From: Oscillospiraceae bacterium
Lineage (GTDB): Bacteria > Bacillota > Clostridia > Oscillospirales > Ruminococcaceae
NCBI GenBank assembly: GCA_009776305.1
Contig: WRLY01000003.1
Span: 72,068 to 136,067 of the forward strand
Reading direction: 5' to 3'
DNA: 64,000 bases
Part shown: in pieces, positions 9,487-64,000 of the stretch
How the letters are laid out: each line of letters opens with the position of its first letter
Position numbering within the stretch: position 1 is the stretch's first letter
The notes under the pieces: model-generated
Database searches by the model: none
What the model was told of the DNA's origin: nothing
Seen by the model: only the letters and a program-made list of their open reading frames with translations
Made by a program: the position numbers and the translations under genes

Positions 9487-9588
9487 TTAAGTTCTCCTTT
9501 AAACATATTTTTAAAACATATTTTTATTTTATTCACATATTCGTTTGCTTGCACAAAATTATGACGAAATTATAAATTGTTTTCTGCC

Positions 9589-13014: not shown

Positions 13015-13061
13015 TGATTTCTCCTTCTGTTATGTTTTTGCAGAGTACTGAGAACAGCGCT

Positions 13062-13525: not shown

Positions 13526-14858
13526 TGAAACCTATATCATAGTTCCCGCTTACAATCTCCTCGTCTTTCAGAAGTTCAAGCTGAAAATCAATATTAGACA
13601 CGATTCCCTCAATCTGGAATTCAGACAGAGCCACCCGCATTTTCTGAATTGCCTCAGCTCTATCCTTGCCGCGTACAATAACCTTAGCTATCATACTGTC
13701 GTAATAAGGCGGGATTTCATACCCCTGAAAAACCGCCGTGTCAATTCTAACACCGAAACCGCCGGGTAAATGCACCATTTCGATTTTGCCGGGAGACGGA
13801 CGGAAGTTGTTCTTCGGGTCTTCCGCGTTTATGCGGCACTCTATGGCGTGACCGTTTAAAACCACGTCCTCCTGTTTAATCTCCAAAGGCTGACCCGAGG
13901 CTACTCTGATTTGCGCCTTGATTAAATCCACGTCGGTTACCATTTCGGTGACGGGATGCTCAACCTGTATGCGGGTATTCATTTCCATGAAGTAAAAGCC
14001 GCCGTGCTTATCCACTAAAAATTCAACCGTTCCCGCGTTGGTATAACCACAGGCTTTGGCGGCTTTAACCGCCGCCTGTCCTATTTTAGCGCGCAATTCA
14101 GGCGTCATTACAGGACAAGGGCTTTCTTCAATAAGCTTTTGATTACGCCGCTGGCAGGAGCAGTCGCGCTCGCCTAAGTATATGACGTTGCCGTGTTCGT
14201 CGGCTAAAAGCTGAATTTCGACATGGCGCGGGTTCTCAATGAACTTTTCAATATATACGTCGTCGTCGCTGAAAAAGGCTTTGGCTTCAGCTTTGGCGGC
14301 TGTAATTTGCGATTCAAGCTCGCTCTCCTCATTAACAGGGCGTATACCTCTGCCTCCGCCGCCTGCGGACGCTTTGATTAAAACTGGATAGCCCATTTTC
14401 TTAGCGATTTTTTTAGCCTCCTCTAAGGAATCAATCGCGCCCTCAGAGCCGGGTATAACCGGAACTCCCGCTTTTCTCATGGTTTCTTTGGCGTTGGCTT
14501 TGTCGCCCATTGCTTCAATAGCATCGGCGGGCGGACCAATCCACTTGATTTTACATTTCTCAGCAAGCCGCACAAAAGCTGCGTTTTCCGATAAGAACCC
14601 GTAGCCCGGATGAATAGCCTCCGCCCCCGTAACATCACAGGCGGCAATAAGCGCCTTTTCGTTAAGGTAGCTGTCCTTAGAGCGCGGCGGTCCGAGGCAG
14701 AGAGATTCGTCCGCTATGAGGGTATGAAGCGCGTTTCTGTCAGCCGTACTGTAAACAGCAACAGTTTTTATGCCGAGTTCACGACAGGCGCGGATTACGC
14801 GCACGGCGATTTCGCCGCGGTTAGCGATAAGTATTTTTTTGAACATATTTCCCACCAT
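13506..14858 (-). CDS. accC: Biotin carboxylase
   Basis: ANRGEIA, HPGYGFLSEN, KASAGGGGRG, EMNTRIQVEHPVTE; all motifs intact. Confidence 0.97.
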   Translation of the reverse strand: MVGNMFKKILIANRGEIAVRVIRACRELGIKTVAVYSTADRNALHTLIADESLCLGPPRSKDSYLNEKALIAACDVTGAEAIHPGYGFLSENAAFVRLAEKCKIKWIGPPADAIEAMGDKANAKETMRKAGVPVIPGSEGAIDSLEEAKKIAKKMGYPVLIKASAGGGGRGIRPVNEESELESQITAAKAEAKAFFSDDDVYIEKFIENPRHVEIQLLADEHGNVIYLGERDCSCQRRNQKLIEESPCPVMTPELRAKIGQAAVKAAKACGYTNAGTVEFLVDKHGGFYFMEMNTRIQVEHPVTEMVTDVDLIKAQIRVASGQPLEIKQEDVVLNGHAIECRINAEDPKNNFRPSPGKIEMVHLPGGFGVRIDTAVFQGYEIPPYYDSMIAKVIVRGKDRAEAIQKMRVALSEFQIEGIVSNIDFQLELLKDEEIVSGNYDIGFIGRRKE

Positions 14859-15219
14859 TCCTTTTCCGGCATAAGCGAGCCGTAAAAATATTTTTTCGCT
14901 TAATTAGGAGCCGTTATTTTCAAACTTTGCGCTCCCTCAAAATATATTAAATGTTCTTATTCAAGCGGTAGAATAAACAAGTGTTCGTCACCGACATATT
15001 TCCTGTTACCGAGCAATACTTTATCGTTCCCTAAAAAGCCGCTCTGTTTCATTTGCAGCTCATGGGATTATCCATGAAAATTTATTTATACGAATTTTTT
15101 ACCGACATAACAACAGTTTGCTTGCCTTGACGGTATGCTATTTATAGTAAGACGTCAGGGATAATATAAATAAGTTTAAAACCGCTAAAATTTGGGACAA
15201 CTCCATGCAACGCTCCTAA

Positions 15220-15645
15220 TTACTTTATCGCGAAAGAAATCTCCGCGCTGACCGCCTTTTCCCCGTTCACGGTCGCAAGCCCTTTGCCGATTCCCACGGG
15301 ACCTTTGATTTTAATAATCTCGACTTCAAGCCTAAGCTCGTCGCCGGGTAATACCTGCTTACGGAATTTGGCTTCCTTTACCCCGCCGAAAAAGCCGATT
15401 TTGCCTTTATTTTCGGGCATGGCAAGCATAGCGCAAGCTCCCGCCTGTGCTAACATTTCAAGCATAAGTACGCCCGGCACAACGGGATAATCGGGGAAAT
15501 GCCCCTTAAACCAGAAGTCGTCCGCTTTAATATGTTTTATTGCCACTACCCTTTTGCCTACTTCAAACTCAACAATTTCGTCAATCAGCAAAAACGGGTC
15601 GCGGTGAGGAATAATTTCTTTTATTTGCTCTTGATTTAATGTCAT
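15220..15645 (-). CDS. fabZ: 3-hydroxyacyl-ACP dehydratase
   Basis: IPHRDPFLLID, FKGHFP, PGVLMLEMLAQ; start ATG 15645 after GAAAGGA. Confidence 0.96.
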   Translation of the reverse strand: MTLNQEQIKEIIPHRDPFLLIDEIVEFEVGKRVVAIKHIKADDFWFKGHFPDYPVVPGVLMLEMLAQAGACAMLAMPENKGKIGFFGGVKEAKFRKQVLPGDELRLEVEIIKIKGPVGIGKGLATVNGEKAVSAEISFAIK

Positions 15646-15694
15646 AATTTTCCTTTCGCAATTGTTAATAACCGAAGATTTCGGTTGCGCGCTA

Positions 15695-16144
15695 CTAATC
15701 AATTCTTATAAGCTTTTGGTCGAATTCCACAGCGTCGCCATCCTTCAAGCAAATCTCCCCGACTGTTCCGCTGAATTCACTGGTGATTTCGTTCATCAGC
15801 TTCATGCTTTCTACAATGCAGACCACCTGTCCCTTTTCAACCTTATCGCCAACCTTTACAAAAGCGGGCTTATCAGGCGATGAGGCGGCGTAAAACGTGC
15901 CTATAATAGGCGATTTTACAAAGTTACCGCCTACAGACGCGGTTTGAACGGGAGCACTTGCTACCGCAACTGCGGGAGCAACAGTAGGAATAACCGCCGC
16001 CGGAACAGTCGGTACAGCGCCGTAAACAGCCGGCTCGGGTATTCCGATTTCAATTTCGGTCACGCCTTCTTTTACACGAATAAACGAAAGGCTGTTTGCC
16101 CTTACTATGTTCGCAAGTTCGCTTGTTACTTTTACTATATCCAT
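15695..16144 (-). CDS. accB: Biotin carboxyl carrier protein
   Basis: Ala/Pro/Val linker, SPIIGTFY, ESMKLMNEI biotinylation motif. Confidence 0.96.
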   Translation of the reverse strand: MDIVKVTSELANIVRANSLSFIRVKEGVTEIEIGIPEPAVYGAVPTVPAAVIPTVAPAVAVASAPVQTASVGGNFVKSPIIGTFYAASSPDKPAFVKVGDKVEKGQVVCIVESMKLMNEITSEFSGTVGEICLKDGDAVEFDQKLIRID

Positions 16145-16167
16145 TTTCTTCTCCTTAAAATTTATTG

Positions 16168-17400
16168 TTATTTTAAACTTTTAAAACACAAAGAAACGTT
16201 GTGCCCGCCGAAACCAAGAGAATTCGATAACGCCGCATTAATTGGGGCGTCTATGCCGCCGTTTACAACATAATCAAGGTCACAGTCCGGGTCGGGAATT
16301 TTATAACCCACCGTTTGATGGATAAAATTATTTTTCATCTGTAAAACTGTGGCTATTGCTTCAACTACACCCGCCGCGCCGAGCAGATGCCCGTTGAGGG
16401 ATTTGGTTGAATTTACCTTTAATTTGTAAGCGTGTTCACCAAATGCCGTTTTGATTGCCAATGTTTCGGTGCGGTCATTAACGGGGGTGGAAGTTCCATG
16501 CGCGTTAATATAATCGACTTCTTCAGGTTTAAGCCCCGCTTCAGTGAATGCAAACTCCATCGCTTTAGCGCCGCCACTGCCATCGGGGTTAGGGCTGGTT
16601 TCGTGAAAGGCATCGCAGGTTGAGCCATAACCGGCAAGCTCGGCATAAATCTTTGCCCCTCTCGCCTTTGCGTACTCGTATTCTTCGAGAATAAGCGCAC
16701 CCGCGCCTTCGCCTAATACAAAACCGCTTCTTTCTTTGTCAAAGGGTACTGAAGCCCTGTCAACATCGCCGGAATTGGTAGTTGCAGTCATATTGTCAAA
16801 GCCCGAATGGGCGAAACCTGTGTCAGAAGCCTCCGCACCGCCCGCTATAGCCACGTCAAGATAACCGTGTTTGATTGCCCTAAATGCTTCCCCCAGCGCG
16901 TGAGCTGAACTGGCGCAAGCCGAAATGGGACAGTAATTAGAGCCTTTAAAGCCTGTCTTAATGGCGACTACTCCCGGAGCCATATTACCTATCATCATGG
17001 GAATCGTAAAAACGCTTACCCTTTTATGCCCTTTATTGTGATAAACAAGCACCTGCTCCTCGGTAGTTTCAATCCCGCCGATTCCCGAACCCATAATAAC
17101 CCCGCATTTATAAGGGTCAAGGTCTTTAAAGTCGCTTCCCGCATCCTCAAGGGCTTTTTTCGCTGCATAAACAGCGTACTGGGTAAGCTTATCGGTACGC
17201 CGAAGCTCTTTTTTTTCGAAGTACTCTTCGGGAGTAAAATCTTTAAGCCGCGCTACCACGTTTTTCTCTTCCGACTGACCTGGAAACCATTCTTCCAGCG
17301 TAAACCCGTGTTTACCCGCTTTCAGATTATCCCAAAAGGTATTAACGTCGTTTCCGACGGGACTTAATACCCCAAGTCCTGTTATTACAACTCTTCTCAA
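16168..17400 (-). CDS. fabF: Beta-ketoacyl-ACP synthase II
   Basis: RRVVITGLG, SACASS, INAHGTST, GHLLGAAG, SNSLGFGGHN. Confidence 0.97.
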   Translation of the reverse strand: MRRVVITGLGVLSPVGNDVNTFWDNLKAGKHGFTLEEWFPGQSEEKNVVARLKDFTPEEYFEKKELRRTDKLTQYAVYAAKKALEDAGSDFKDLDPYKCGVIMGSGIGGIETTEEQVLVYHNKGHKRVSVFTIPMMIGNMAPGVVAIKTGFKGSNYCPISACASSAHALGEAFRAIKHGYLDVAIAGGAEASDTGFAHSGFDNMTATTNSGDVDRASVPFDKERSGFVLGEGAGALILEEYEYAKARGAKIYAELAGYGSTCDAFHETSPNPDGSGGAKAMEFAFTEAGLKPEEVDYINAHGTSTPVNDRTETLAIKTAFGEHAYKLKVNSTKSLNGHLLGAAGVVEAIATVLQMKNNFIHQTVGYKIPDPDCDLDYVVNGGIDAPINAALSNSLGFGGHNVSLCFKSLK

Positions 17401-17449
17401 TGCTGTTTTTACCTCCTTATTATGTGAGCGTTAATTAACCGTTTAATTT

Positions 17450-18184
17450 TTACATAGACAATCCGCCGCTTATTTCAATAACCTGTCCTGTTATGTAAGA
17501 GCTGTCCTTGCCCGCCAAAAACGATACCACGCCCGAAATTTCATCAACCGTTCCGTAACGTTTCATAGCGACCATTCCCAGAATCGCCTGTTTTTGAGCG
17601 TCGGTCAGCGCGTCGGTCATAGGGGTTTCTATAAAACCGGGAGCAATGGCGTTTACGTTTATGCCCCGCGCCCCGAATTCCTTAGCCGCGCTTTTGGTCA
17701 TGCCTATGACGGCGGCTTTGGAGGCGCTGTAGTTGAACTGCCCCGCGTTGCCGTGCAATCCCGCCACCGAAGAAACATTTATTACCCTGCCGCTCTTCTG
17801 TTTCATCATAACAGCGCAACAGTGTTTCATCATATTATAGACGCTCTTTTGGTTTACCGCAATTACAAGGTCATAATTTTCCTCGCTCATGCGCGCAAGC
17901 AAGCCGTCGCGGGTAATACCAGCGTTATTGACCAATACGTCTATAGTACCGAAACGCTCTTTTATTTTTTTGACGGTTTCCTCACAGGAGTTATGGTTTG
18001 AAACATCGGCGGCAAAGCACTCGGCTTCCACCCCGAACCCCCTGCATTTTTCAGCGGTCTCGGCAAGCGCCTCCATATTCAAATCATTCAGTGCGACATT
18101 GAAACCGTCGGACGCTAACCTTACGGCTATCATAGCGCCTATTCCCCTGCCCGCGCCGGTTATTACTGCGGTTTTGCTCATCAT
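17450..18184 (-). CDS. fabG: 3-oxoacyl-ACP reductase
   Basis: TGAGRGIG, NNAGITRD, YSASK; position within the fab cluster. Confidence 0.95.
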   Translation of the reverse strand: MMSKTAVITGAGRGIGAMIAVRLASDGFNVALNDLNMEALAETAEKCRGFGVEAECFAADVSNHNSCEETVKKIKERFGTIDVLVNNAGITRDGLLARMSEENYDLVIAVNQKSVYNMMKHCCAVMMKQKSGRVINVSSVAGLHGNAGQFNYSASKAAVIGMTKSAAKEFGARGINVNAIAPGFIETPMTDALTDAQKQAILGMVAMKRYGTVDEISGVVSFLAGKDSSYITGQVIEISGGLSM

Positions 18185-51929: not shown

Positions 51930-52748
51930 TCACTTCATAACTTTCCGAAATTTGCCTATGAGCGTAAATAAAATAAAAACGAGCAGATTTACTGCCACTA
52001 CGCAAGCACCCGGAGGAAGCGAATAATAAAAAGTTATAATAAGCCCCGCCGTGAAACATATAACCGAGGTTATGGCGGAGCAAATTACGGTAGCTTTAAA
52101 CCCGCCGAATATTCTCATTGCCGAAAGCGGCGGGAAAATAATTAACCCCGAGATAAGTAACGCCCCCATAAACCTCATTCCAATCACAATGATTACCGAA
52201 GTCAGGACGGCAAGCAGGGTGTTATAAAGCGATACGTTTATACCGGAGGCTTTTGCGAAGTTTTCATCAAAAGTAACTAAAAATATTTTATTATAAAAAA
52301 TAATATAAAGGGCAATTATTACGGCAGAGCATATCACACTGACTATAACATCGGATTTGTCAAGGGCAAATATACTCCCGAACATGTAGCGGTTTATATC
52401 ATTGCGGACATTGAAATGGGTCATCAGAATAAGCCCGCCCGCAAGCGCCCCCGATGAAATTACAGCAATCAGCGCATCGCCTTTAATTTTGCCGTTTTTA
52501 CTTACGCGGAGCAGGAAAACCGCGGCGATTCCCACAATGGGAATCGCCGCCCAGGTCGGGAGCGGATTTATTGCCGCCGTAAGCGCGAACGCCCCAAAAC
52601 CAACATGCGCCAATCCGTCGCCTATCATGGAATAACGCTTTAACACAAGGTTCACACCGAGCAAAGACGCACAAAGCGAGGTCAACACACCCGCAATCAA
52701 GGCATACCTCATGAAGTCAAAAGAAAACATTTGCACTAAAAAATACAC
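51930..52748 (-). CDS. Zn/Mn ABC transporter permease (ZnuB-like)
   Basis: LVLKRYSMIGDGLAHVGFG, YMFGSI, TFDENFAKASG. Confidence 0.92.
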   Translation of the reverse strand: MYFLVQMFSFDFMRYALIAGVLTSLCASLLGVNLVLKRYSMIGDGLAHVGFGAFALTAAINPLPTWAAIPIVGIAAVFLLRVSKNGKIKGDALIAVISSGALAGGLILMTHFNVRNDINRYMFGSIFALDKSDVIVSVICSAVIIALYIIFYNKIFLVTFDENFAKASGINVSLYNTLLAVLTSVIIVIGMRFMGALLISGLIIFPPLSAMRIFGGFKATVICSAITSVICFTAGLIITFYYSLPPGACVVAVNLLVFILFTLIGKFRKVMK

Positions 52749-52813
52749 TCCAAGTTATATTATTATTACTCAAATACTGTCTGCGGCAGGCTACCGTATT
52801 ATTTTAGGGCGGT

Positions 52814-53533
52814 TCATATTGCCCCGGTCGGCGCATCGGCGCCGACCATTTCTTTATAAAGGGTCGTTTGTTTATATTCTTCAACCATGCCGAAAAAGCC
52901 GTGGTCTTCCTTATCCGAAATATGCAGGATTTTGTCGGCGTTGGCAACAGCACCCGCTAAGTCATGGGTTACCATAATTACGGTCATGTCTTCGTTTTTA
53001 TGAAGCACGCCTATTAATTCGTACAGCTCCGCTCTTACAACGGGGTCAAGCCCTGTCGCAGGCTCGTCAAGAAGTAACAGTTTTTCCGCCGCGCAAAGTG
53101 CCCGCGCAATTAAAATCCGCTGTTTCTGCCCACCCGAAAGGTCTCTGAAACGGCGTTTTTCAAGCTCTGAAACCCGCAGTTTTTCCAAAGCTACTCTGGT
53201 TTTTTCCCTTTGCTTATCTTTGTAAAAAGGCAAAAAACCCATGCCGTTAAGACAACCTGAAAGCACTACTTCACCCGCAGTTACAGGGAAATCCTCCGAA
53301 ACGGGGGTATGCTGAGGCAAATATCCTATTTCACTGCGCTTGACGTTGGTCAGTTCAAGACCGCCTTTATGTTTCAAAAGTCCTAATATGCCTTTTACAA
53401 GGGTGCTTTTTCCCGAGCCGTTCTCCCCTACTATTGTGAGAAACTCCCCCCGCTTAACGCTGAATGAAAGATTGCAAAGTACGGTGTGATTCTCATAGCA
53501 CATGCACAGGTTTTTACATTTAATCATTTCCAT
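52814..53533 (-). CDS. Zn/Mn ABC transporter ATPase (ZnuC-like)
   Basis: GENGSGKS, GYLPQ, LSGGQKQR, LLDEP, VTHD. Confidence 0.93.
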   Translation of the reverse strand: MEMIKCKNLCMCYENHTVLCNLSFSVKRGEFLTIVGENGSGKSTLVKGILGLLKHKGGLELTNVKRSEIGYLPQHTPVSEDFPVTAGEVVLSGCLNGMGFLPFYKDKQREKTRVALEKLRVSELEKRRFRDLSGGQKQRILIARALCAAEKLLLLDEPATGLDPVVRAELYELIGVLHKNEDMTVIMVTHDLAGAVANADKILHISDKEDHGFFGMVEEYKQTTLYKEMVGADAPTGAI

Positions 53534-53960
53534 AAGCCGCCTCACAACTATTTTCCGCGTCACAATCATGACATCTGCCGTAAAATACGGTTTTTGTATT
53601 GTCTATATTAAAATCATGGTCACTTTTCACATGGGTTTCTATATCGGAAAGATAATCACATTCTATATGAAAAAGCTTGCCGCAGTCACCGCATTTTAAG
53701 TGAAAATGCTCACGGCAGACATCCCGACAGATAAGTTGATAGCAGGCGCCGCCCGGAGCAGAGGTTCTGCTTTCGGCGGTGTATTTCCGCACCATTCCGG
53801 ATTCAAGCAAAAGGTCAAGATAGCGGTAGACAGTTGCCTTGCCGACCAATTCCCCGTCTGCTTTAAGCGCCGAAACTATTTCTTCGGCGGTAAGGTGGCG
53901 GTCTTTTTGTTCTTTTAATAAATTTAAGATTAATTTACGTTGTTTTGTCGAATAACTCAT
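53520..53960 (-). CDS. Fur-family repressor (probably Zur)
   Basis: HLTAEEI, GKATVYRYL, HFHLKCGDCG, YGRCHDC; first gene of a metal ABC operon. Confidence 0.9.
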   Translation of the reverse strand: MSYSTKQRKLILNLLKEQKDRHLTAEEIVSALKADGELVGKATVYRYLDLLLESGMVRKYTAESRTSAPGGACYQLICRDVCREHFHLKCGDCGKLFHIECDYLSDIETHVKSDHDFNIDNTKTVFYGRCHDCDAENSCEAAYGND

Positions 53961-54011
53961 TTTTTCCTCGCAGACGCACATTATACGTCTAATATTTTAG
54001 AAATTTCTGAA

Positions 54012-54144: not shown

Positions 54145-54327
54145 ACGCCGCCCAAAAATTTACATAAGAAAAAAGCGAATAAAGAAATCCGCTTTGTCAA
54201 TACTTTTAATATGAAACCGGAGAGTTGCCGGTTCTGAGAGCCTGCTTTTTTAAGTAACGGTTTTTGCGATGCGGCGTGTTCAAATCACCCGCTTATATTT
54301 TTTATAATTTTTAAGGAGTGATTTGAA

Positions 54328-54639
54328 TTGTATTATAACAAGGTTGAAATCAGCGGCGTTAATACTGCCAACTTAAAAGTTTTAAAGGAGGCGGAAAAAC
54401 TCGAACTGCTCCATAAGATAAAAAGCGGCGACATGAAAGCCCGCGAAGACTTAATCAACGGGAATTTACGGTTAGTGTTGAGCGTAATTCAGCGTTTTTC
54501 AGGGCGCGGTGAAAACCCCGACGACCTGTTCCAGGTGGGTTGCATAGGTCTGATAAAATCTATTGACAATTTTGATACGTCGTTGAACGTGAAGTTCAGC
54601 ACTTACGCAGTGCCGATGAATGTCTGTAGTGGAAATTAA
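54328..54639 (+). CDS. sigG: Sporulation sigma factor G, 5' half only (interrupted after YAVPM at 54618)
   Basis: SigG-type N-terminus NKVEISGVNTANLKVL and region 2 GNLRLVLSVIQRF..RGENPDDLFQVGCIGLIKSIDNFD..KFSTYAVPM. It then reads NVCSGN* instead of the expected IIGEIRRYLRD. Confidence 0.92.
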   Translation: MYYNKVEISGVNTANLKVLKEAEKLELLHKIKSGDMKAREDLINGNLRLVLSVIQRFSGRGENPDDLFQVGCIGLIKSIDNFDTSLNVKFSTYAVPMNVCSGN

Positions 54640-54712
54640 TGTTTTTTATTTAAAAACGAAGTGATATGGAATTGTATGCCATTTCAGCAATCACCCCTTA
54701 TTTTATAGTTAT

Positions 54713-54742
54713 ATTATACCTTATTTTTTATGGTTGTGTCAA
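54713..54742 (-). promoter_or_regulatory. sigmaA-type promoter facing the sigG breakpoint
   Basis: TTGACA-18-TATAAT on the minus strand, divergent from the malQ promoter (TTGACA-17-TAAAAT, 54783-54811). Confidence 0.6.
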
Positions 54743-54861
54743 TATATACATATTTCCGATTTACCTAAAAAATCTTTCTGAATTGACATAAAACTAATTT
54801 TATGTTAAAATCTTATATATAAATATTTCCGGCGCTACGGCAGATAAAGGAGAGAGTAAAA

Positions 54862-56379
54862 ATGAGAAAAAGCGGCGTATTATTACCTATTTCAAGTATT
54901 CCGTCAAAGTACGGCATAGGGACCTTCGGAAGAAAAGCGTATGAATTCGTAGATTTTTTAGAAAAGGCGGGGCAAAGCTACTGGCAAATCCTGCCGCTCG
55001 GTCCGACCGGATTCGGCGATTCCCCGTACCAGTCCTTTTCCACATTCGCGGGAAATCCATACTATATTGACCTTGAACTGTTGCTGCTTGAAGGCTTGCT
55101 GACAAATAAACACATCAGCGAATATACCAAAGACTGCGTTTCCGACAATGGGGAAAAAAACGTGGATTATGAAAATTTATATAATACCCGCTTTACGATT
55201 CTTTATGAGGCTTTCAAGACTTTCAGTAAAAACAATCATCATGACGAGCCGCAGTACCGTGAATTTTGCGATAAAAATAAATATTGGCTTGACGATTACG
55301 CGCTTTTCATGGCTGTAAAGGAAAACGCTTTTGACGGCAAGGGTTTCTGCGACTGGGACAAGGACATTAAATTGCGCGAGGAAAGCGCGATTGCCGCTTA
55401 TACCAAAGAATATAAAGAGAAAATATCCTTTTATAAATTTCAGCAGTATTATTTTATGAAACAATGGTTGCCGCTTAAAGAATACGCCAATGAAAAAGGG
55501 ATTCAAATTATAGGCGATATTCCCATATACGTGGCGTATGACAGCGCCGATACTTGGGCAGAGCCGAATCTGTTTCTTTTTGACCAAACGCTTACCCCTA
55601 CTGTAGTAGCGGGTTGCCCCCCGCAACCTCACGAGACGTCCGGCGGTCAAATCTGGGGCAATCCGCTTTATAACTGGGAAGAACATAAAAACACAGGTTA
55701 TGCCTGGTGGAAACGCCGTATGGAACATTCTTACGAGCTGTATAATATAGTACGCATTGACCACTTTTTGAGCTTTGACCAATATTACACAATTCCTTAC
55801 GGCTCTGAAACGGCTGAATTCGGAACTTTAGAACAGGGTCCGGGGTATGATTTATTTGAAAAAATTATGTTTTCCGATAATCAGAATGACAAAAAAGTCT
55901 CGGCAAAGGTAATCGCAGAGGATTTGGGTACTGTAACCGAATCGGCGAAACAGCTTATAGAGCGGACGGGATTCCCCGGCATGAAGATTATGCAGTACGC
56001 CTTTAACTGCGGGTTTGAAAGCGACCATCTCCCGCATAATCATATTAAAAATTGCGTTGTTTATACCGGTACTCACGACAATGACACGGTTGTCGGCTGG
56101 TGGAACAGCTTGAACCAGTGGGATAAAAACTTCGCCGAAAAGTACATGAACATAAAAAGCGGGCAAGACATAAACTGGTCTCTGCTTAAAGCCGCTTTGG
56201 CAAGCGTTGCTGATACCGTAATTATACCTATGCAGGATTATTTGGGGTTGGATTCAGACGCGAGGTTGAATTCCCCGTCTACTATGGGCAAAAACTGGGT
56301 GTGGCGTATGGCGGAAAAAGATATAAACGATGAATTGGCGGAGAAAATATACGAGATTACAAAAGTATTCTGGCGGTAA
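54862..56379 (+). CDS. malQ: 4-alpha-glucanotransferase (GH77)
   Basis: WQILPLGP, DSPYQSFSTFAGNP, IIGDIPIYVA, RIDHF, IAEDLG, YTGTHDNDT. Confidence 0.93.
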   Translation: MRKSGVLLPISSIPSKYGIGTFGRKAYEFVDFLEKAGQSYWQILPLGPTGFGDSPYQSFSTFAGNPYYIDLELLLLEGLLTNKHISEYTKDCVSDNGEKNVDYENLYNTRFTILYEAFKTFSKNNHHDEPQYREFCDKNKYWLDDYALFMAVKENAFDGKGFCDWDKDIKLREESAIAAYTKEYKEKISFYKFQQYYFMKQWLPLKEYANEKGIQIIGDIPIYVAYDSADTWAEPNLFLFDQTLTPTVVAGCPPQPHETSGGQIWGNPLYNWEEHKNTGYAWWKRRMEHSYELYNIVRIDHFLSFDQYYTIPYGSETAEFGTLEQGPGYDLFEKIMFSDNQNDKKVSAKVIAEDLGTVTESAKQLIERTGFPGMKIMQYAFNCGFESDHLPHNHIKNCVVYTGTHDNDTVVGWWNSLNQWDKNFAEKYMNIKSGQDINWSLLKAALASVADTVIIPMQDYLGLDSDARLNSPSTMGKNWVWRMAEKDINDELAEKIYEITKVFWR

Positions 56380-56430
56380 ACGGGAAAATAAGAACCTGTA
56401 CATAATTTATTGAAAGAATGGTACTTAAAA

Positions 56431-57627
56431 ATGACTAAAAAAGCACCTTTATTGTTAAGCGCGGCGTTGCTTATGGCAACCTCTGCCGTGGGTCCCGGTT
56501 TTTTAACCCAGACGGCGAATTTTACGGGAGAGTTTCAGGGTAGTTTCGGATTTGTTATTTTAGCGGCAGCTTTACTGGCGGCAATTGTTCAGCTAAACAT
56601 TTGGCGGGTTTTATGTGTATCGGGTCTGCGCGGGCAGGACGTAGCCAATCGCTTATTGCCGGGACTCGGTTATTTTGTAAGTTTCCTTGTGGTACTTGGG
56701 GGCATTGTCTTTAACATAGGAAATGTGGGAGGCGGCGCACTTGGGTTTAACGCCTTGCTCGGTATACCCGAAATGGCAGGTTACTTTTTGACGGGTGGTT
56801 TGGCGATTGCCGTCTTTTTGATGAAAGACGCGTTAAAAGCTATGGACAGACTGGTTAAGGTGTTAGCCGCACTCATGCTCCTGCTTATTTTAGTGGTAAT
56901 TTTTATTGTGCAGCCTCCGGTTGGAATGGCGCTTAAAGAAAGCATTATGCCCTCTGAGCCTTTTGTCAACCTTTTCTTCCCCATTATCACAATCCTCGGC
57001 GGCACTGTCGGCGGCTACATAACCTTTGCAGGCGCTCATAGAATGATTGACGCCAAAGTAACAAAGGAAGAAAATCTGCCTCAGGTAAAGAAAACCGCTT
57101 TAATGGGCGTGGGTATTGCCACGTTGGTGCGTATACTTTTGTTTTTATCGGTATTGGGCGTGGTTGTGGGCGGTCATGTTCTTGACGCATCAAACCCCGC
57201 CGCCGACGCTTTCAAAATTGCTTTAGGAGAAATCGGTTATCGCTTTTTCGGATTAGTACTTTTTTGCGCAGCAATTACTTCAGTTGTGGGGGCGGCTTAT
57301 ACTTCGGTGTCCTTTCTTAAAACTTTCCACAGCTCAATTGAAAAGAATGAAAAATGGGTGATTACGACTTTTATCGCATTTTCTACCATTATTATGGCGG
57401 TACTCGGAAGACCCGCGGTTTTGCTTGTTGTTGCGGGAGCATTTAACGGTTTAATTCTTCCCGTTACGCTGGGGGTCTGCCTTGTGGCTTCAAGGAATAA
57501 GCGGATTATGGGAGAAAGCTATAAGCACCCCTTATGGCTGTCGCTGTCGGGAATTGTCGTTTTAGTTTTGACCGCCTATTTGGGAATTCAGGCTTTGGAA
57601 GGCATTTTAAATTTGTTTAGGGTTTAA
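56431..57627 (+). CDS. YcsG-like NRAMP-family transporter
   Basis: LMATSAVGPGFLTQT, GGTVGGYITFAGAHR, AAITSVVGAAYTSVSF; adjacent to the pxp genes. Confidence 0.88.
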   Translation: MTKKAPLLLSAALLMATSAVGPGFLTQTANFTGEFQGSFGFVILAAALLAAIVQLNIWRVLCVSGLRGQDVANRLLPGLGYFVSFLVVLGGIVFNIGNVGGGALGFNALLGIPEMAGYFLTGGLAIAVFLMKDALKAMDRLVKVLAALMLLLILVVIFIVQPPVGMALKESIMPSEPFVNLFFPIITILGGTVGGYITFAGAHRMIDAKVTKEENLPQVKKTALMGVGIATLVRILLFLSVLGVVVGGHVLDASNPAADAFKIALGEIGYRFFGLVLFCAAITSVVGAAYTSVSFLKTFHSSIEKNEKWVITTFIAFSTIIMAVLGRPAVLLVVAGAFNGLILPVTLGVCLVASRNKRIMGESYKHPLWLSLSGIVVLVLTAYLGIQALEGILNLFRV

Positions 57628-57629
57628 AG

Positions 57630-58385
57630 GTGGCTGATTTGAATAATTCAAGTAACGCGGCGCAAAAAGCAAAAATTTCAGCGGTGGGGGATTCTTCTGT
57701 ACTTATAGAATTTGAAAACGAAATTTCCCCGGAAATTAACGCCAAAATAACAAGCTTGGTTCGACTTATAAAAGAACAGCAAATCAAGGGTATTACGGAT
57801 ATGATTCCTTCCTTTCGCGCCTTGCTGGTCAACTATGAGCCGAGAGTGATTTCCTACAGCCGAATCCGCAGGCGGCTTTCGGAGCTTGCGCGGTTTGAAG
57901 CACGGACAACGGAAAGCTCCGCTAAGATTTTTGAGATACCTGTTTGCTACGCCGGCGAATACGCTCCCGATATAGACCATATTGCCAAGCGGGCAGGTTT
58001 GAGCGTTAAAGAGGTAATTAAAATCCATTCGGGGCGGGATTATTTGATTTATATGCTTGGGTTTATGCCCGGTTTTCCGTACCTTGGCGGGTTAGACGAG
58101 CGTATTCACACCCCCCGCCTTGAAACGCCACGCGTGCAAATCCGTGCGGGTAGTGTAGGAATCGGAGGAACCCAGACAGGGATTTATCCTTTGGATTCCC
58201 CCGGAGGGTGGCAGTTGCTCGGAATGACCCCTGTAAAAACCTATGACCCGATGCGGGAACAGCCCATACTTTTTGAAGCGGGAGATTATATAAGGTTTGT
58301 ACCTATAGATAAATCACAGTTCAATGAAATTAAAGCGCAGACAGAAGAAGGAACTTATAAATGCAATGTTCACTTATGTTCCTAA
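57630..58385 (+). CDS. pxpB: 5-oxoprolinase subunit B (KipI-like)
   Basis: GDSSVLIEF, IPVCY, MLGFMPGFPYLGG, GSVGIGG.QTGIYP..SPGGWQ. Confidence 0.93.
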   Translation: MADLNNSSNAAQKAKISAVGDSSVLIEFENEISPEINAKITSLVRLIKEQQIKGITDMIPSFRALLVNYEPRVISYSRIRRRLSELARFEARTTESSAKIFEIPVCYAGEYAPDIDHIAKRAGLSVKEVIKIHSGRDYLIYMLGFMPGFPYLGGLDERIHTPRLETPRVQIRAGSVGIGGTQTGIYPLDSPGGWQLLGMTPVKTYDPMREQPILFEAGDYIRFVPIDKSQFNEIKAQTEEGTYKCNVHLCS

Positions 58386-58435
58386 TACTAATCTTAGATT
58401 AGTATTATAAAAAACCGATTTGAGGTGGGTTAAGT

Positions 58436-59467
58436 ATGGGCATTCGCGTATTAAAGCCGGGCTTATTGACTACCATACAGGATTTAGGGCGTACAGGTTA
58501 TCAAAGCCAGGGATTCGGCGTTTCGGGGGTTATGGACACGCGCTCTTTCAGAATTGCCAATCTTCTTTTAGACAACCCCGAAAACGAGGCGGTTATAGAG
58601 TTCACCTTGAGCGGACCTGTTTTGGAATTTACGTCGGAAACTATTATTGCCATTACCGGCGGTGACTTTCAGCCTATGGTGAATAAAAAGCCGATTAAGA
58701 TGTACACGGCTGTTTATATGAATAAAGGTGATATATTGGAATTTGCCGGTTGTAAGACCGGCTGTCGGGGGTATATCGCTTTTTCAAGTTACTTAAATGT
58801 TCCTATGATTATGGGAAGTCGCTCTACTAATATAAAATGTGGCATAGGCGGCTTTAAGGGACGTAAACTACAGGAGCGCGATTCGATTATCTTTCGTCAA
58901 AAACGACGTTATCTGCCTTACTTTTTGTCCCGTACTCTTAATTTGCCTGATTTTCATGAGATTGACAAAAGAGAAATTACTTTGCGGGTTGTTTTAGGAC
59001 CGCAACAACACCATTTTTCAAAACAAGGGGTGGAAACATTTTTGAGCGGCGTTTATACGGTAACAAGCGAGTTTGACCGTATGGGCTGTCGTTTGGAAGG
59101 TCCTTTGATTGAATCGCGAAACAGTAAAACAGGAACGGATATTATTTCCGATGGGATTGCTTTCGGCTCTGTTCAGGTGCCGAGCGGCAAGCCGATTATT
59201 TTATTGGCTGACAGGCAGACCACCGGAGGCTATGCTAAAATTGCCACGGTCGCTTCTGTTGATATACCAAAATTAGCACAGCGAAAACCCGGCAACACAG
59301 TCCGCTTTACCGACGTTACCGTGGAGGAAGCCGCAAAGCTGATTAAAGACGAGATGAATGAACTGGAAGACTTCAGAAAAGAAATTCACAAACCCTGCGC
59401 GGAGGTGCTGGACTCAAGATTGGTGGCAAAAAGGTTGCAAAAATTGTTTGTAAAGGCGGGGGAGTAA
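58436..59467 (+). CDS. pxpC: 5-oxoprolinase subunit C (KipA-like)
   Basis: PGLLTTIQDLGR, GSRST, DRMGCRL, GSVQVP, DRQTTGGYAKI. Confidence 0.93.
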   Translation: MGIRVLKPGLLTTIQDLGRTGYQSQGFGVSGVMDTRSFRIANLLLDNPENEAVIEFTLSGPVLEFTSETIIAITGGDFQPMVNKKPIKMYTAVYMNKGDILEFAGCKTGCRGYIAFSSYLNVPMIMGSRSTNIKCGIGGFKGRKLQERDSIIFRQKRRYLPYFLSRTLNLPDFHEIDKREITLRVVLGPQQHHFSKQGVETFLSGVYTVTSEFDRMGCRLEGPLIESRNSKTGTDIISDGIAFGSVQVPSGKPIILLADRQTTGGYAKIATVASVDIPKLAQRKPGNTVRFTDVTVEEAAKLIKDEMNELEDFRKEIHKPCAEVLDSRLVAKRLQKLFVKAGE

Positions 59468-59471
59468 TTCT

Positions 59472-60677
59472 GTGAGTAATACCATAAGACGAGGACGGCT
59501 TGAACCGCCACTCAATAAAGACAAAGCGCTTACACCCGGCTCAGGGGCGGCGAAATTGCGTCTGCCTGTAAGGCAGTTTAAAAAAGTGTTGGTAGCCAAC
59601 CGCGGCGAAATAGCCGTTAGAATAATCCGAGCTTTGCGGGAGCTTGGTATTCGCAGTGTGGCTGTATATTCCAAGGAAGATAAAAACAGTCTGCACGTCC
59701 AATTGGCAGACCAGAGAATTTGCATCGGAGAAGATTCCCCGAACAGCTATTTTAATAAAGAGCGGATTGTAACATCAGCTTTAATCTTTGAGGCGGACGC
59801 AGTTCACCCGGGTTACGGCTTTCTTTCAGAAAATGCTGACTTTGCACGCTTATGCGCTAAAAACAGCATAACGTTTATAGGTCCGCAAGCCGACATACTT
59901 GAAAACATAAGCAATAAATCCAATACTCATCAAATTAGTGAAAAAAATATTGAAAATATGCGGCACATTGAGGTTCAAATTATCGCGGATAATTACGGAA
60001 ATGTGGTATCTTTTGGGGAACGGGATTGCACTATCCGACTTAGGCACGGACATAATAAGCTTTTGGCTGAATCCCCCTCCCCTGCCGTTAATTCCGCAAT
60101 GAGAAAGGCTTTGGGTGAAGCGGCGGTGATTGCCGCTAAGGAGTTGGGATATGTAAACGCAGGAACAGCAGAATTTGTTTTGGACGCTGAGGGGCAACAT
60201 TATTTCACAAAAATAAAGCCCTGTATTCAGACTGAACACGGGGTAACGGAAATAGCAACAGGTATAGATTTGGTGGCAGAGCAAATTAGGGTTGCTGCCG
60301 GTGAAGTTTTGAGCTTTACCGGAAAGAATGTTAAAATAACGGGACACTCCATAGGATGCCGGATTTACGCCGAGTTGTCGGGAAACAGCGTTGCCAGGCA
60401 CATTCACCTGCCCGCCGGAAACGGTATTCGGGTGGATACGGTTTTATACACAGGCTATTCTGTACCGTCGGATTATGCTGATTATGATAATATGATTGCC
60501 AATGTATTGGTTCACGCCCCCACGCGGGAACGCGCAATTGCTAAAATGCGCTCCGCGTTAGATGAAACAGTTATATTAGGCGTTAAAACCAATTTAGATT
60601 TTCTGTTTCAGATTACGCGTGAGCCTGAATTTTGCGCGGGCAGATTTGATTCAAGTTTTATAAATAACAGTTACTGA
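59472..60677 (+). CDS. Degenerate biotin carboxylase-like protein (B-domain deleted)
   Basis: ANRGEIA and HPGYGFLSEN are retained. About 76 aa including KASAGGGGRG are missing relative to AccC in this window, and EMNTR is replaced by KIKPC. Confidence 0.85.
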   Translation: MSNTIRRGRLEPPLNKDKALTPGSGAAKLRLPVRQFKKVLVANRGEIAVRIIRALRELGIRSVAVYSKEDKNSLHVQLADQRICIGEDSPNSYFNKERIVTSALIFEADAVHPGYGFLSENADFARLCAKNSITFIGPQADILENISNKSNTHQISEKNIENMRHIEVQIIADNYGNVVSFGERDCTIRLRHGHNKLLAESPSPAVNSAMRKALGEAAVIAAKELGYVNAGTAEFVLDAEGQHYFTKIKPCIQTEHGVTEIATGIDLVAEQIRVAAGEVLSFTGKNVKITGHSIGCRIYAELSGNSVARHIHLPAGNGIRVDTVLYTGYSVPSDYADYDNMIANVLVHAPTRERAIAKMRSALDETVILGVKTNLDFLFQITREPEFCAGRFDSSFINNSY

Positions 60678-60728
60678 ATAACTTGCAAAGCGAGTTATTC
60701 AGAATTATAAGTAACAGGAGCAATAAAT

Positions 60729-61496
60729 ATGATATATAAAGTAGACTTAAACAGTGATTTAGGAGAAAGTTTCGGCGCTTATAACATAGGCATGGACGAA
60801 AAAATCATACCGCTTATTTCTTCCGCCAACGTTGCCTGCGGCTACCATGCCTCAGACCCCGTGGTTATGTTGCGAACCATTGAGCGTATAAAAGCGGCGG
60901 GAGCGCAAATAGGCGCACATCCGGGATTTCCCGATTTAATGGGTTTCGGACGGCGCAATATGAGCATTTCGTTAGAAGAGGCAAAGGCATACACCTTATA
61001 CCAAATCGGGGCTTTGGGCGGAATGTGCCGTGCAAGCGGTATAAAATTACAGCATGTCAAAGCCCACGGCGCACTTTACAACATGGCGGCGGCAGATTAT
61101 TCCTTATCTAAGGCTATTTGCGAAGCAATAGCCGCTTTTGACCCTAATGTAATAGTACTGGGCTTATCGGGAAGCGAGACAATCCGTGCGGCTGAGGACT
61201 GCGGTTTGAGGGTCGCACGGGAGGTTTTTGCCGACCGCGGTTATAACGAGGACGGTTCTTTAGTAAACCGTAATAAGGAAGGCGCGTTTATTCATGATGA
61301 AAACGAGGCTGTATCAAGAGTTGTTCGCATGGTAAAAGAGGGGAAAGCTCAGGCGATAACAGGCAAGGATATTTCAATCAGGGCAGATTCGGTTTGCGTA
61401 CACGGGGACGGAGAAAAGGCGTTGCTGTTTGTGGAGAGAATCCGTGGGACGCTTAAAGAGGCGGGAATTGAGGTTTGCGGGTTGGGAGATTTGTAA
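60729..61496 (+). CDS. pxpA: 5-oxoprolinase subunit A (LamB/YcsF)
   Basis: [50 protein letters not shown]. Confidence 0.95.
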
Positions 61497-61507
61497 GTGT
61501 TATAATT

Positions 61508-62893
61508 TCAGACTTTATTTACGAATCCATCAAATTTATAAAAGATTTCAACCTGCTTATCAGTTATTATTATTTTGTTTAAACAATTGCGAATTATATT
61601 TTTGCGCTCCTGTACGGTCATGTATTCCCATGTTTCCTTTAGAGTAGTGAGCGTTTTATTTATATTTTGTATCTGTCCGCTGATTGCACTGCGTTCCTGT
61701 TCCCTTTTTATCTGTTCCTGTATGCCGGTAAGCTGTTTTCGTAACTCACCAATCGTTTCGAGAAGAACCTCATCACTTCCCTCCGAATAAATGCCGTAAA
61801 GGCGTTTTATTTTTTTGGCTGTTTCCCCATACTGACTGTTTAAAATTTCTATAACGCTCTTTGACGACTCCTTTTCGCATTTTATATTTTTTTGTCTTAA
61901 CGAAAAGGCAAATAAATCCTGTATAACCACGCTTTCTATTTCAGCCGCCCACTGCTTTGGGTTGTTGCAGTCGGGGTCTTTAATAAGGTGTGGTTTGTTT
62001 TTATCCTGCGAATAGCATACAAGCTTGCAGTCATATTTTCCCCACTTCTGATAACGCAGTTTTGCGCCGCATTTACCGCAAACCAAAAGCCCCGTCAATA
62101 AGTAATTGCTGTCACTCGGGCGAAACACCGACCTCGAAAGCATATAATCCATAGCCTTTTGATAGGTTTCAAGACTGATAATAGGTTCATGCTTTCCTAT
62201 ATATTCCTCGCCGTTATAGTTTATGAACCCGGCATTGGATTTTCTTGTCAAAATCTGCATCGCTAATTTCTCATATTTTAATCCTACCATTTGAGCTATT
62301 TTGGCACAAGAGTAGCCCTCTAAGTATAAATCGTAAATTTTTCGGACGGTATCGGCATCTTGGTTTGGAATAAGTATCCCCTGCCCTTTATCATAATCAT
62401 ATCCGAAAGGGATTCTGCCACCGCCCATCCACAAGCCCGCCTTGACCCGCTCTTTCATTCCCATACGGGTTCGCTCGCGGATATTCTCCCGCTCAAGCTG
62501 GGCAAAGGCAGAAAGTATGCCGAGCATTAACCGCCCGAGAGGTGTTGAGGTATCCATACTTTCATTCAGCGATAAAAAGTCAACGCCGTGAGGGTTGAAA
62601 ACGTCTTCAATTAAGTACAGGGTATCCTTTTGGCTTCGGGAAAGCCTGTCAAGCTTATAAACCAAAACCCTGTCCACAAGTCCGTTTTTTATATCCTCAA
62701 TCAACCGCCCAAGCTCCGGGCGCTCGATATTGCTCCCTGTGAAACCGCCGTCGATATAATAATCGTAGTCCTTAATGCCTTTGGATACACAATAAGCTGT
62801 CAGCATTTCCTTTTGGGCGTCAATCGAGTAACCTTCCTCGCGCTGTGCGTCGGTTGAAACACGGATATAAATTGCGGATTTTATTTTTTTCAT
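61508..62893 (-). CDS. Large serine recombinase
   Basis: Catalytic IYIRVST, VYKLDRLSR, FAQLERENIRER, GG.IPFGY, zinc ribbon CGKC...C...C, coiled coil. Confidence 0.96.
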   Translation of the reverse strand: MKKIKSAIYIRVSTDAQREEGYSIDAQKEMLTAYCVSKGIKDYDYYIDGGFTGSNIERPELGRLIEDIKNGLVDRVLVYKLDRLSRSQKDTLYLIEDVFNPHGVDFLSLNESMDTSTPLGRLMLGILSAFAQLERENIRERTRMGMKERVKAGLWMGGGRIPFGYDYDKGQGILIPNQDADTVRKIYDLYLEGYSCAKIAQMVGLKYEKLAMQILTRKSNAGFINYNGEEYIGKHEPIISLETYQKAMDYMLSRSVFRPSDSNYLLTGLLVCGKCGAKLRYQKWGKYDCKLVCYSQDKNKPHLIKDPDCNNPKQWAAEIESVVIQDLFAFSLRQKNIKCEKESSKSVIEILNSQYGETAKKIKRLYGIYSEGSDEVLLETIGELRKQLTGIQEQIKREQERSAISGQIQNINKTLTTLKETWEYMTVQERKNIIRNCLNKIIITDKQVEIFYKFDGFVNKV

Positions 62894-62947
62894 AAATCGC
62901 TCCCATGTGAAATAATGCTACAACGGAAAAGAATCGCTTTTTCTATC

Positions 62948-62976
62948 ATTATAGCATATACTTTAATTTATTTCAA
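62948..62976 (-). promoter_or_regulatory. sigmaA-type promoter of the recombinase
   Basis: TTGAAA-17-TATAAT with extended TG. Confidence 0.7.
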
Positions 62977-63130
62977 CATCTTTTGTTTCAATACGTCTTT
63001 TGTCGGGAACCGCTTTTAATCTTTCATTTACCTGTAAAATAGTCTTTTGAATAATTTCGCTTTCAATAATATAATTTTTCATGTTTTCAGAATTTAATTT
63101 TTGATTATTTACATAGCGTATTATTTCCAA
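62963..63130 (-). CDS. 55-aa protein upstream of the recombinase; candidate recombination directionality factor
   Basis: RBS GAGGTG, TTG start, MEIIRYVNNQKLNSENMKNYIIESEIIQKTILQVNERLKAVPDKRRIETKDVEIN*; below the ORF-track cutoff. Function is inferred from position only. Confidence 0.65.
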   Translation of the reverse strand: MEIIRYVNNQKLNSENMKNYIIESEIIQKTILQVNERLKAVPDKRRIETKDVEIN

Positions 63131-63147
63131 AAATTACCACCTCAATT

Positions 63148-63177
63148 TATTATGGGAGGGAGGGAGGGTTTTTAAAC
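63148..63177 (-). promoter_or_regulatory. Putative forespore (sigmaF/sigmaG-type) promoter
   Basis: GTTTA-N18-CATAATA directly upstream of the RBS of the 55-aa ORF. Confidence 0.5.
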
Positions 63178-63320
63178 AAGCGGCTAACTCCTTTTGCCGC
63201 TCATATAAAAATCCGGGAGATATATTATTTTTATTTTTAATTCTTGTCTTGCAAACAACGATAATGTATGGTATACTTTGGGAGTTCCGCTTAAAATCAT
63301 GAGAGCCCCGGAGGTAAAAA

Positions 63321-64000
63321 GTGCCAAACATAATAATTATCGGCGAAAACAGCTACATAGGGAACGCCTTTGAAGCTTTCGCCCGAAAAGAACTTAACCC
63401 CAATATAAAAAAAATCAGCAGTCGTAATGAAGCTTGGAAAAACGAGAATTTTTCCCAAGCCGACTGCGTTTTATTTTGCGCCGGAATAGCCCACAAAAAA
63501 GCGGAAGACGAGCTGCATTTCGCTGTAAACCGCGATTTGGCGGTCGAAACAGCAAAAAAAGCTAAAAAAGAAAAAGTCCCCCACTTTATTTACATCAGCA
63601 GTGCGGCTGTTTTCGGAAATGATGGGGGTACAGTCAACCCGCGAACCCCCCCGAACCCGCGCGGTGCTTATGGCGAAAGCAAGTTTGAAGCTGAAAACGA
63701 GTTGAAAAAATTAAGTGATGTTAATGACAACGGATTCATTTTAACAATTGTACGCCCACCTATGGTTTACGGAGCGGGTTGTAAAGGTAATTTCCCGCGG
63801 CTTGTGAGGTTGTCGGAAATTATGCCCTTATTCCCCGATATTGATAATAAACGCAGTATGATTTATATAGAAAATTTATGCTTTTTCCTGCTTGGTTTGA
63901 TTGAGGACAGGCGGCGAGGCGTATTTTTCCCGCAAAACGCGGAATATCAAAGCACTTCTGCCATTTATCGGCAGATTCGCGAGGTTTTGGGCAAAAAAAG
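63321..64000 (+). CDS. NAD-dependent epimerase/dehydratase (3' end off the window)
   Basis: RBS GGAGG and GTG start; IIGENSYIG, CAGIAH, FIYISSAAVFG, YGESK, RPPMVYG. Confidence 0.9.
   Translation, partial: MPNIIIIGENSYIGNAFEAFARKELNPNIKKISSRNEAWKNENFSQADCVLFCAGIAHKKAEDELHFAVNRDLAVETAKKAKKEKVPHFIYISSAAVFGNDGGTVNPRTPPNPRGAYGESKFEAENELKKLSDVNDNGFILTIVRPPMVYGAGCKGNFPRLVRLSEIMPLFPDIDNKRSMIYIENLCFFLLGLIEDRRRGVFFPQNAEYQSTSAIYRQIREVLGKK

Follow-up and report, generated by a model that had tools for sequence, protein, structure and literature searches.

An apparently phage-derived serine recombinase element that splits the forespore sigma-factor gene sigG in an Oscillospiraceae bacterium

The elements described so far that divide a sporulation gene and are excised by a serine recombinase all lie in mother-cell genes. 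Skin-type elements in sigK vary widely in size and cargo, with the recombinase alone in common (bioRxiv 10.1101/2022.02.25.481979; PMC5025042). SPbeta in spsM (with SprA/SprB), gin in gerE, vfbin in spoVFB and vrin in spoVR pair a constitutive recombinase with a directionality factor made from a sporulation promoter and rejoin their genes precisely, and gin carries no phage genes at all (PMC4191935, PMC5499854, PMC5595907). Outside sporulation, reversible active lysogeny, as in the Listeria prophage in comK and SpyCIM1 in mutL of S. pyogenes, involves excision without lysis, maintenance as an episome and reintegration (PMC13492144). A 2026 review names sigK and spsM as the only sporulation cases, and the key papers likewise treat mother-cell genes only. 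Here we describe an element of 14,704 bp between crossovers that divides the two halves of sigG on one contig of an Oscillospiraceae bacterium (assembly GCA_009776305.1, here G000; contig WRLY01000003.1, here C3), and that is unusual in lying in this gene. To our knowledge SigG is forespore-specific in every organism studied, and no description of an element intervening in sigG was found in our full-text literature searches. The locus was first noticed in a 64-kb stretch, G000:C3:72068-136067, which we call the window, and whose initial annotation proposed that a large serine recombinase (LSR) reassembles sigG during sporulation.

The window carries the 5′ half of sigG, an open reading frame (ORF; 54328-54639, + strand) with a TTG start and the ribosome-binding site AAGGAG upstream. 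Its best matches are the NCBIfam SigG equivalogs (model positions 1-99, E 8e-47), well above SigF, and the gene order spoIIGA-sigE-sigG in relatives likewise identifies it as sigG. The frame reads to KFSTYAVPM and then through six foreign codons (NVCSGN) to a stop. As the initial annotation had it, this half is intact, ends at STYAVPM and lacks a 3′ partner within the 64 kb. The annotation had proposed looking through the genome for an orphan 3′ half that starts at the same codon; a TIGR02850 search of the whole assembly (1.54 Mb, 7 contigs, 71% complete) locates it, intact, at G000:C3:141381-141863, on the + strand like the 5′ half and 5.3 kb past the window end. This corresponds to approximately 69314-69796 in window terms, and to 15887-16370 in terms of L008, the 18-kb locus G000:C3:125500-143500 (window coordinate = L008 coordinate + 53432). 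With TIGR02850/NF006071 the 5′ half scores 155 bits (positions 1-97) and the 3′ half 246 bits (positions 92-253), while the TIGR02850 cut-off of 457 bits is reached by no intact sigG among the 61 relatives that we compared. Joined in silico at the core, the halves form an open frame for a 256-aa SigG, reading STYAVPM-ILGEVKRYLRD across the joint; relative G028, whose sigG is intact, has a SigG that is 92% identical to it from end to end. The locus comprises the following features, in window coordinates unless L008 is named.

54176-54206, + strand: forespore-type promoter of sigG by its resemblance, GAATA-N16-CAATACT (18.6 bits, the top site of the 18-kb locus)
54328-54618, + strand: sigG 5′ half, codons 1-97; its frame continues into the element arm and stops at 54639
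54613-54635, no strand assigned: attL, with core CCGATGA, crossover CC at 54613-54614, then the element-side arm ATGTCTGTAGTGGAAA
54862-61496, + strand: cargo block 1, with malQ, an NRAMP-like transporter, pxpB, pxpC, a biotin-carboxylase-like gene and pxpA (NCBIfam/Pfam)
61508-62893, - strand: LSR, 461 aa (PF00239, PF07508, PF13408; PHROG 95)
62947-62958, - strand: putative housekeeping-type extended -10 (TGcTATAAT) directly upstream of the LSR, from sequence reading alone
62963-63130, - strand: 55-aa ORF with ribosome-binding site GAGGTGG, candidate directionality factor
63147-63178, - strand: weak forespore-type promoter-like site, TGTTTA-N17-CATAAT (9.1 bits), at -48 of the 55-aa ORF
63321-64000 and on past the window, + strand: cargo block 2, with an epimerase, a CapD-like protein, a Wzy/O-antigen-ligase-like protein and a sugar transferase (ORFs/Pfam)
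L008 15239-15841, - strand: 201-aa end gene, its start codon approximately 45 nt from the crossover, followed by attR
L008 15885-15886, no strand assigned: CC of attR (junction sequence)

The element thus runs attL, cargo block 1, recombinase, 55-aa ORF, cargo block 2, 201-aa ORF, attR. Its left junction reads GCAGTGCCGATGA/ATGTCTGTAGTGGAAA and its right junction TTTCTACTACAGACGCTCATTCCGATGA/TATTAGGTGAAG, with the core CCGATGA common to both. The element-side arms are inverted repeats of 20 nt, 85% complementary and 14,660 nt apart. In the split-sigG relative G031 the left and right junctions have CC alone in common, and this CC is the centre of the reconstructed attP, which identifies CC as the crossover dinucleotide; it falls within the codons for Pro96-Met97. 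Read plainly, attL × attR recombination at CC would give an intact sigG and a 14.7-kb circle. Of the two kinds of rearrangement that the initial annotation had left standing, excision is retained and inversion is not, since halves on one strand have the geometry of excision.

The split is not an assembly error. An identical recombinase and an identical 201-aa protein occur with the same neighbours in two other assemblies, JGI 3300002469 (79-kb contig) and ENA ERZ27257348 (121-kb contig), and in both a 160-aa sigG 3′ fragment adjoins the 201-aa gene. Misassembly, which the initial annotation had named as a possible refutation, is excluded by these two further independent assemblies together with the same junction in other species. 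Another of its refuting cases, an intact sigG elsewhere, was likewise not borne out: no second sigG was found in the 71%-complete G000 or in G031, which is 97% complete. The other sigma-factor matches in G000 are weaker, comprising a partial SigF-like match (positions 36-253), one in a 368-aa frame of RpoD size and two more.

The LSR is linked to this break by more than its proximity, which was all that the initial annotation could offer for a link that itself holds up; the tie is drawn from the anatomy of the att sites and from dozens of orthologous LSR-sigG junctions. The protein contains the Resolvase (PF00239, E 1e-42), Recombinase (PF07508) and Zn-ribbon (PF13408) domains and matches the PHROG 95 integrase family (E 7e-117), and its catalytic serine (S12 in YIRVST) and four ribbon cysteines are invariant in an alignment of five orthologues. 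The att sites fit this recombinase type, being short, imperfect palindromes with a central 2-bp crossover; in free relatives, attP is palindromic at 17-19 of 20 positions around GG or CC, and where the central dinucleotide is opposite relative to the gene, the element is inserted in the opposite orientation. The break recurs at this codon of sigG in some of the 61 relatives, namely G015, G031 and G008 of the same genus and G037 and G051 of other families. LSR orthologues of 52-83% identity occur in all of these but G008, and those of G031 and G015 come to within 76-200 bp of the break. A public scan for this LSR (one genome per species, queried with the alignment of the five orthologues) returned more than 400 relatives. 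In approximately 50 of the 80 closest loci (at least 51% identity) a sigG half starts within about 100 bp of the LSR stop codon, either as a 5′ half on the opposite strand or as a 3′ half on the same strand, an orientation that goes with GG or CC at the site centre. The co-occurrence of split sigG with this LSR clade, suggested as a check at the outset, is therefore widespread. Complete elements of 2.5-6.8 kb lie on single contigs of metagenome-assembled genomes (MAGs) of Defluviitaleaceae, Lachnospiraceae and Acutalibacteraceae, and the cultured Oscillospiraceae bacterium LBM23126 (CP176394.1), whose genome is complete, carries another (6.8 kb, locus L086). The LSR orthologue is present in 12 of 108 species of G000's own genus.

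Two loci depart from this arrangement. In G037 (L025, on G037:C10, 15256-16632 and upstream) the LSR orthologue, accompanied by its small ORF, is 2.7 kb past the 3′ end of sigG. The neighbours of this pair are ispDF and carD-like genes, and neither of the two has an att arm beside it; the sigG 5′ half is on another contig, beside nth and a trpB-like gene. From this layout the LSR looks captured by the chromosome, or domesticated, and the halves look far apart. G003 (L207, on G003:C57) has an intact sigG and a 71%-identical LSR and was considered as an excised state, but was set aside as uninformative because the LSR locus is rearranged, is without an att arm and has a small ORF broken up by a piece of a small resolvase gene; its LSR is orphan or relocated.

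Both sigG halves are under strong purifying selection, and neither they nor the sigG promoter show decay. Among G000, G015 and G031 the dN/dS of the halves is 0.005-0.04 with dS saturated, the 5′ half giving 0.01-0.04 against G015 and G031, and the sigG promoter motif is conserved in G031, G015 and G008. A clearer picture comes from 7-9 herbivore-gut species that form a clade and have gene order in common to either side of the site, namely pncB, prs and rluB towards the host and an amidohydrolase, ilvE and 2-oxoacid oxidoreductase genes towards the element. In this clade the sigG 5′ halves have a pN of 0.10 versus a pS of 0.73 and the closest species pair is closest for sigG and LSR alike. In these loci (L045-L074) core metabolic genes, ilvE and 2-oxoacid:ferredoxin oxidoreductase subunits, stand left of the LSR on the element side of the sigG break, and the segment between the halves is ordinary chromosome and not a compact island.

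Some variation surrounds sigG itself. Between its promoter and ribosome-binding site (window 54207-54320) G000 has approximately 90 extra bases, including a GC-rich hairpin, that G031 and G015 lack. Farther upstream (window 51930-53981), in the interval from an nrdG-like gene to sigG, G000 has a Fur/Zur-like regulator and a zinc-uptake-like ABC ATPase-permease pair; the regulator and ABC pair are absent from this interval in G031 and G015, where the nrdG-like gene is directly 5′ of sigG. In G017, a complete genome of G000's genus, a duplicate of the sigG 3′ end (L032, on G017:C1, 11483-11701; residues 184-256, 78% identical) lies approximately 830 bp downstream of an intact sigG, and a comparable second sigG fragment occurs in IMG/VR locus L129.

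The recombination module carries promoter-like sequences of two kinds, assigned to sigma factors here by resemblance only. A matrix trained on 36 sigG promoters was used for scoring, and a two-block pattern, G(T/A)ATA-N16/17-nAATA(C/A)T, fits 40 of 54 sigG upstream regions. Before the small ORF, the best match to the matrix falls at a near-fixed place 46-55 nt upstream. It reaches at least 12 bits in 14 of 59 lineages versus 0.9% of 1,374 control upstream regions, and at least 14 bits in 10 of 59 versus 0.3% of controls; the lineages with such a site include G015 and a 50-kb phage lineage that integrates in sigG. The LSR, in turn, is preceded by TGnTATAAT, located between the small ORF and the LSR and conserved in G000, G031 and G015. 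Same-clade LSRs with a small ORF and strong forespore-type promoter matches also occur with no sigG half adjoining (L073, L079, L082, L083, L087, L091-L093, L116).

The 55-aa ORF belongs to a family of 40-60 aa proteins with the motif M-x-I-x-R-Y-I-N-G-x-K, found directly upstream of the LSR, and often overlapping it, in 91 of 160 loci. It is kept in minimal elements stripped of all else, and in G037 away from any att site. LSR aside, this is the sole gene that nearly all elements keep, which makes it our candidate for the directionality factor. An AlphaFold2 model predicts a beta-hairpin and two helices (mean pLDDT 76); the ORF has no match in Pfam, NCBIfam or PHROG, a word-indexed protein search returned only itself, and neither a profile search of PDB sequences nor Foldseek gave a significant result. 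The 201-aa end protein, with 335 cluster representatives in a full HMMER scan, is modelled as small helical modules (pLDDT 90). It has no Pfam match, and Foldseek against PDB returned nothing. A fold name was considered and set aside, as the best VIA-align hit (Z 5.4, to a 52-residue piece of SauUSI) and generic helix-turn-helix matches are too weak. Because many elements are without the 201-aa gene, it is not a universal partner.

The family to which the element belongs is phage-derived. IMG/VR contains phage contigs of this LSR clade in both free and integrated states. In one lineage the LSR is followed by a perfect 20-nt palindromic attP and then by a homologue of the 201-aa gene, and the same arm is fused to the sigG 5′ half on another IMG/VR contig; a lineage of approximately 50 kb shows attP as well as junctions with the sigG 3′ half. 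A Logan contig gives the order LSR, attP, 201-aa homologue, holin-like gene and Amidase_2 endolysin. The complete circular genome of Dulem virus 39 (PP511791.1) encodes an LSR of 40% identity with a small upstream ORF, and its attP centre, GTGCC/AATGATTATA, resembles the sigG site. From these comparisons the G000 element reads as a stripped-down, phage-derived descendant. Of the phage genes it retains only those that flank attP, with the small ORF and LSR to one side of it and the 201-aa gene across from them.

Amid these retained genes lies host-type cargo. The cargo ORFs match metabolic and polysaccharide families only, and no phage, conjugation (integrative and conjugative element, ICE) or replication family in Pfam or NCBIfam, and in PHROG searches the recombinase alone has a clear match. 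The initial description of metabolic cargo, an intact LSR and a 55-aa ORF is borne out by domain matches, the catalytic serine and the ribosome-binding site; its statement that phage and ICE genes are absent applies to this copy, where Pfam detects none, and fails for the family, which is phage-derived. Cargo block 1 is placed unusually, separating the recombinase stop codon from the attL arm. Most relatives, G031 and G015 among them, have the recombinase immediately beside the att site, and G069 has a 1.2-kb insert at the spot that block 1 occupies. No flanking repeats of block 1 were found, and a second malQ, 48% identical to the element copy, is on G000 contig C4.

As the best explanation for a degenerate, phage-derived element in this gene, we infer a timing and compartment of excision, a role for the 55-aa protein and reintegration. 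We tentatively favour sporulation-linked excision in the forespore line, to which we give close to, but short of, an even chance. The indirect evidence for it comes from the selection on both sigG halves, from the sporulation genes that carriers keep and, in other lineages, from the forespore-type promoter of the small partner gene. The LSR would be made constitutively from its own extended -10 promoter, and sigma-F, which would also fire the sigG promoter, would switch on the small partner protein, turning the LSR towards excision; attL × attR recombination would then rebuild sigG and SigG would be produced. The circle would be kept in the non-dividing spore and the LSR alone would reintegrate it at outgrowth, or, alternatively, only some chromosome copies would excise. 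Circle retention with reintegration, or partial excision, would be needed because the element has no replication genes and yet its relatives persist through speciation. The fullest form of this proposal is a programmed, reversible germ-line rearrangement in which sigma-F induces the directionality factor, the forespore excises the element, the circle stays in the spore and reinserts at outgrowth, and the split is inherited indefinitely; this we consider unlikely, and its corollary that in some lineages the LSR has moved into the chromosome as a host gene is equally doubtful.

The main rival, which we rate only slightly lower and likewise below an even chance, is that the element is a temperate-phage relic for which conserved sigG served as a safe landing site, such that sigG is knocked out, the carrier does not sporulate, and only rare spontaneous excisants, at most, form spores again, acting as a population-level on/off switch without developmental control. 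Several observations point this way or weigh against forespore excision. Relatives of the element are real phages, both free (with palindromic attP near lysis genes) and integrated in sigG, and G003 has an orphan, rearranged LSR locus beside an intact sigG. The host tree is ((G031,G015),G000), read from two flanking genes, one nrdG-like (163 aa) and one for a binding protein (540 aa), for which G031 and G015 are 79% identical to each other and approximately 55-70% identical to G000; the LSR tree is ((G000,G031),G015), with 83% versus 68% identity. This conflict indicates that elements moved across species, and for the same reason an argument from vertical inheritance within the genus was dropped. 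All three assemblies contain the integrated form only, and neither a rejoined sigG nor an attP junction of this element was seen in scans of a public run and metagenomes: in the run (termite gut metagenome, 2017, Logan contigs, share of words 0.11), 21 short contigs on the 18-kb locus have a depth of approximately 3, none crosses attL or attR and none contains a joint, and exact 33-nt attP and 36-nt attB patterns have no match in JGI metagenome contigs. The small-ORF promoter of G000 itself is weak, spoIVA was not found in the 71%-complete genome and its best Spo0A match is weak. Finally, the habitat is the termite gut; termites transfer gut microbes directly among nest-mates, so that spores may matter little there. 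What a mere landing site does not readily explain is that the halves and sigG promoter are undecayed despite saturated synonymous divergence, that a synteny-conserved herbivore-gut clade keeps the 5′ half under selection, and that forespore-type promoters occur on the recombination module in many lineages, which is hard to account for without a link to sporulation. Carriers also keep sporulation genes. G000 retains gpr, spoVAD and one gene for a small acid-soluble protein (SASP), all above curated cut-offs, and the split-sigG relatives G008, G015 and G051 have an intact spoIVA, whereas truly asporogenous relatives (G013, G021 and G056) have lost sigG and spoIVA together. The initial annotation would have abandoned its model for a genome with no 3′ half and decayed sporulation genes; here the 3′ half is present, and the sporulation genes give the divided answer just described.

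The remaining explanations seem to us improbable to different degrees. Sporulation-linked excision might precede the forespore or not be confined to it, taking place for example in the predivisional cell or in both compartments; or it might not be followed by reintegration, leaving spores cured and the element surviving in vegetative lineages or by re-infection. The housekeeping-type LSR promoter, the movement of elements between species and the absence of matched replication or transfer genes would suit such a course, but it is hard to square loss at each sporulation with degenerate elements, without transfer or virion genes, that persist syntenic across several species, and the recognisable promoters resemble sigG's own; on balance we think it rather unlikely. 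Far less probable, indeed barely credible, is an artefact or dead gene, whether misassembly, a pseudogene with a working copy elsewhere or halves acting as separate polypeptides. G000 is incomplete, which leaves some room for this, but the three independent assemblies are alike, other species have the same junction and no second sigG was found in G000 or in nearly complete G031. Furthermore, the break is inside region 2.4 and the 3′ half is without a ribosome-binding site.

Some spoIVA loci among the relatives are themselves interrupted. In G031 this mother-cell gene is split at approximately codon 400 (L204, G031:C24:1-19500, at about 370-17587) by some 17 kb encoding a type I restriction-modification system, an AbiEii toxin, a DUF2726 helicase, a Schlafen/AlbA protein and a separate 615-aa serine recombinase. 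In G037 spoIVA is in two pieces (1-411 and 408-492) on different contigs, and G025 has an extra 399-492 fragment 5 kb from an intact gene.

What is new here is a complete element with both sigG halves on one contig in direct orientation and, as the junctions are read, a CC crossover; related phages both free and integrated; a conserved small partner ORF with its promoter statistics; and the finding that asporogenous relatives have lost both sigG and spoIVA. If the partner protein sets direction, the LSR, its att sites and this protein would make a compact new serine-integrase set. The question of forespore excision is directly testable, given that one carrier is in culture and its genome is complete (CP176394.1).

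Compared with its phage relatives, the G000 element shares an LSR clade (40-56% identity to those of Dulem virus 39 and IMG/VR contigs such as UViG_3300045988_137872), the small upstream ORF and a sigG-like attP centre, and some of these phage lineages are known both free and integrated in sigG. The phages, however, are complete genomes of 30-60 kb, whereas this element has no matched virion, lysis or replication genes, as a functional temperate prophage would, and carries metabolic and polysaccharide cargo. Like skin in sigK (SpoIVCA in B. subtilis; CD1231 with the directionality factor CD1234 in C. difficile), it is a defective, prophage-like LSR element that splits a sporulation sigma gene in frame, and excision restores that frame, here in silico. 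Its recombinase is of a clade separate from the skin recombinases, with its own conserved 40-60-aa partner and a different att site. A further difference lies in the compartment: sigK is a mother-cell gene, and excision need not be reversed in a genome that is discarded, whereas sigG serves the forespore, which passes its genome on. The elements in spsM, gerE, spoVFB and spoVR differ in the same way, being in mother-cell genes, and their excision has been shown to be confined to the mother cell. In the case of SPbeta, spores have been shown to keep the element integrated in their genome (PMC4191935), and such logic cannot deliver SigG to the forespore. Active lysogeny resembles the present case in that the interrupted host gene is needed by a heritable cell, but involves neither sporulation nor a compartment-specific sigma factor, and reversibility of the G000 element is suggested solely by the persistence of non-transmissible elements across species. 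The sigK, spsM, gerE, spoVFB and spoVR rearrangements are all explained by a dead-end mother cell, a rule that the widespread and conserved split of sigG breaks. Either many gut Clostridia rebuild a gene in an inherited chromosome and then undo the repair, or a large phage family controls the sporulation of its hosts, and both outcomes bear on the spore-mediated transmission of gut bacteria.

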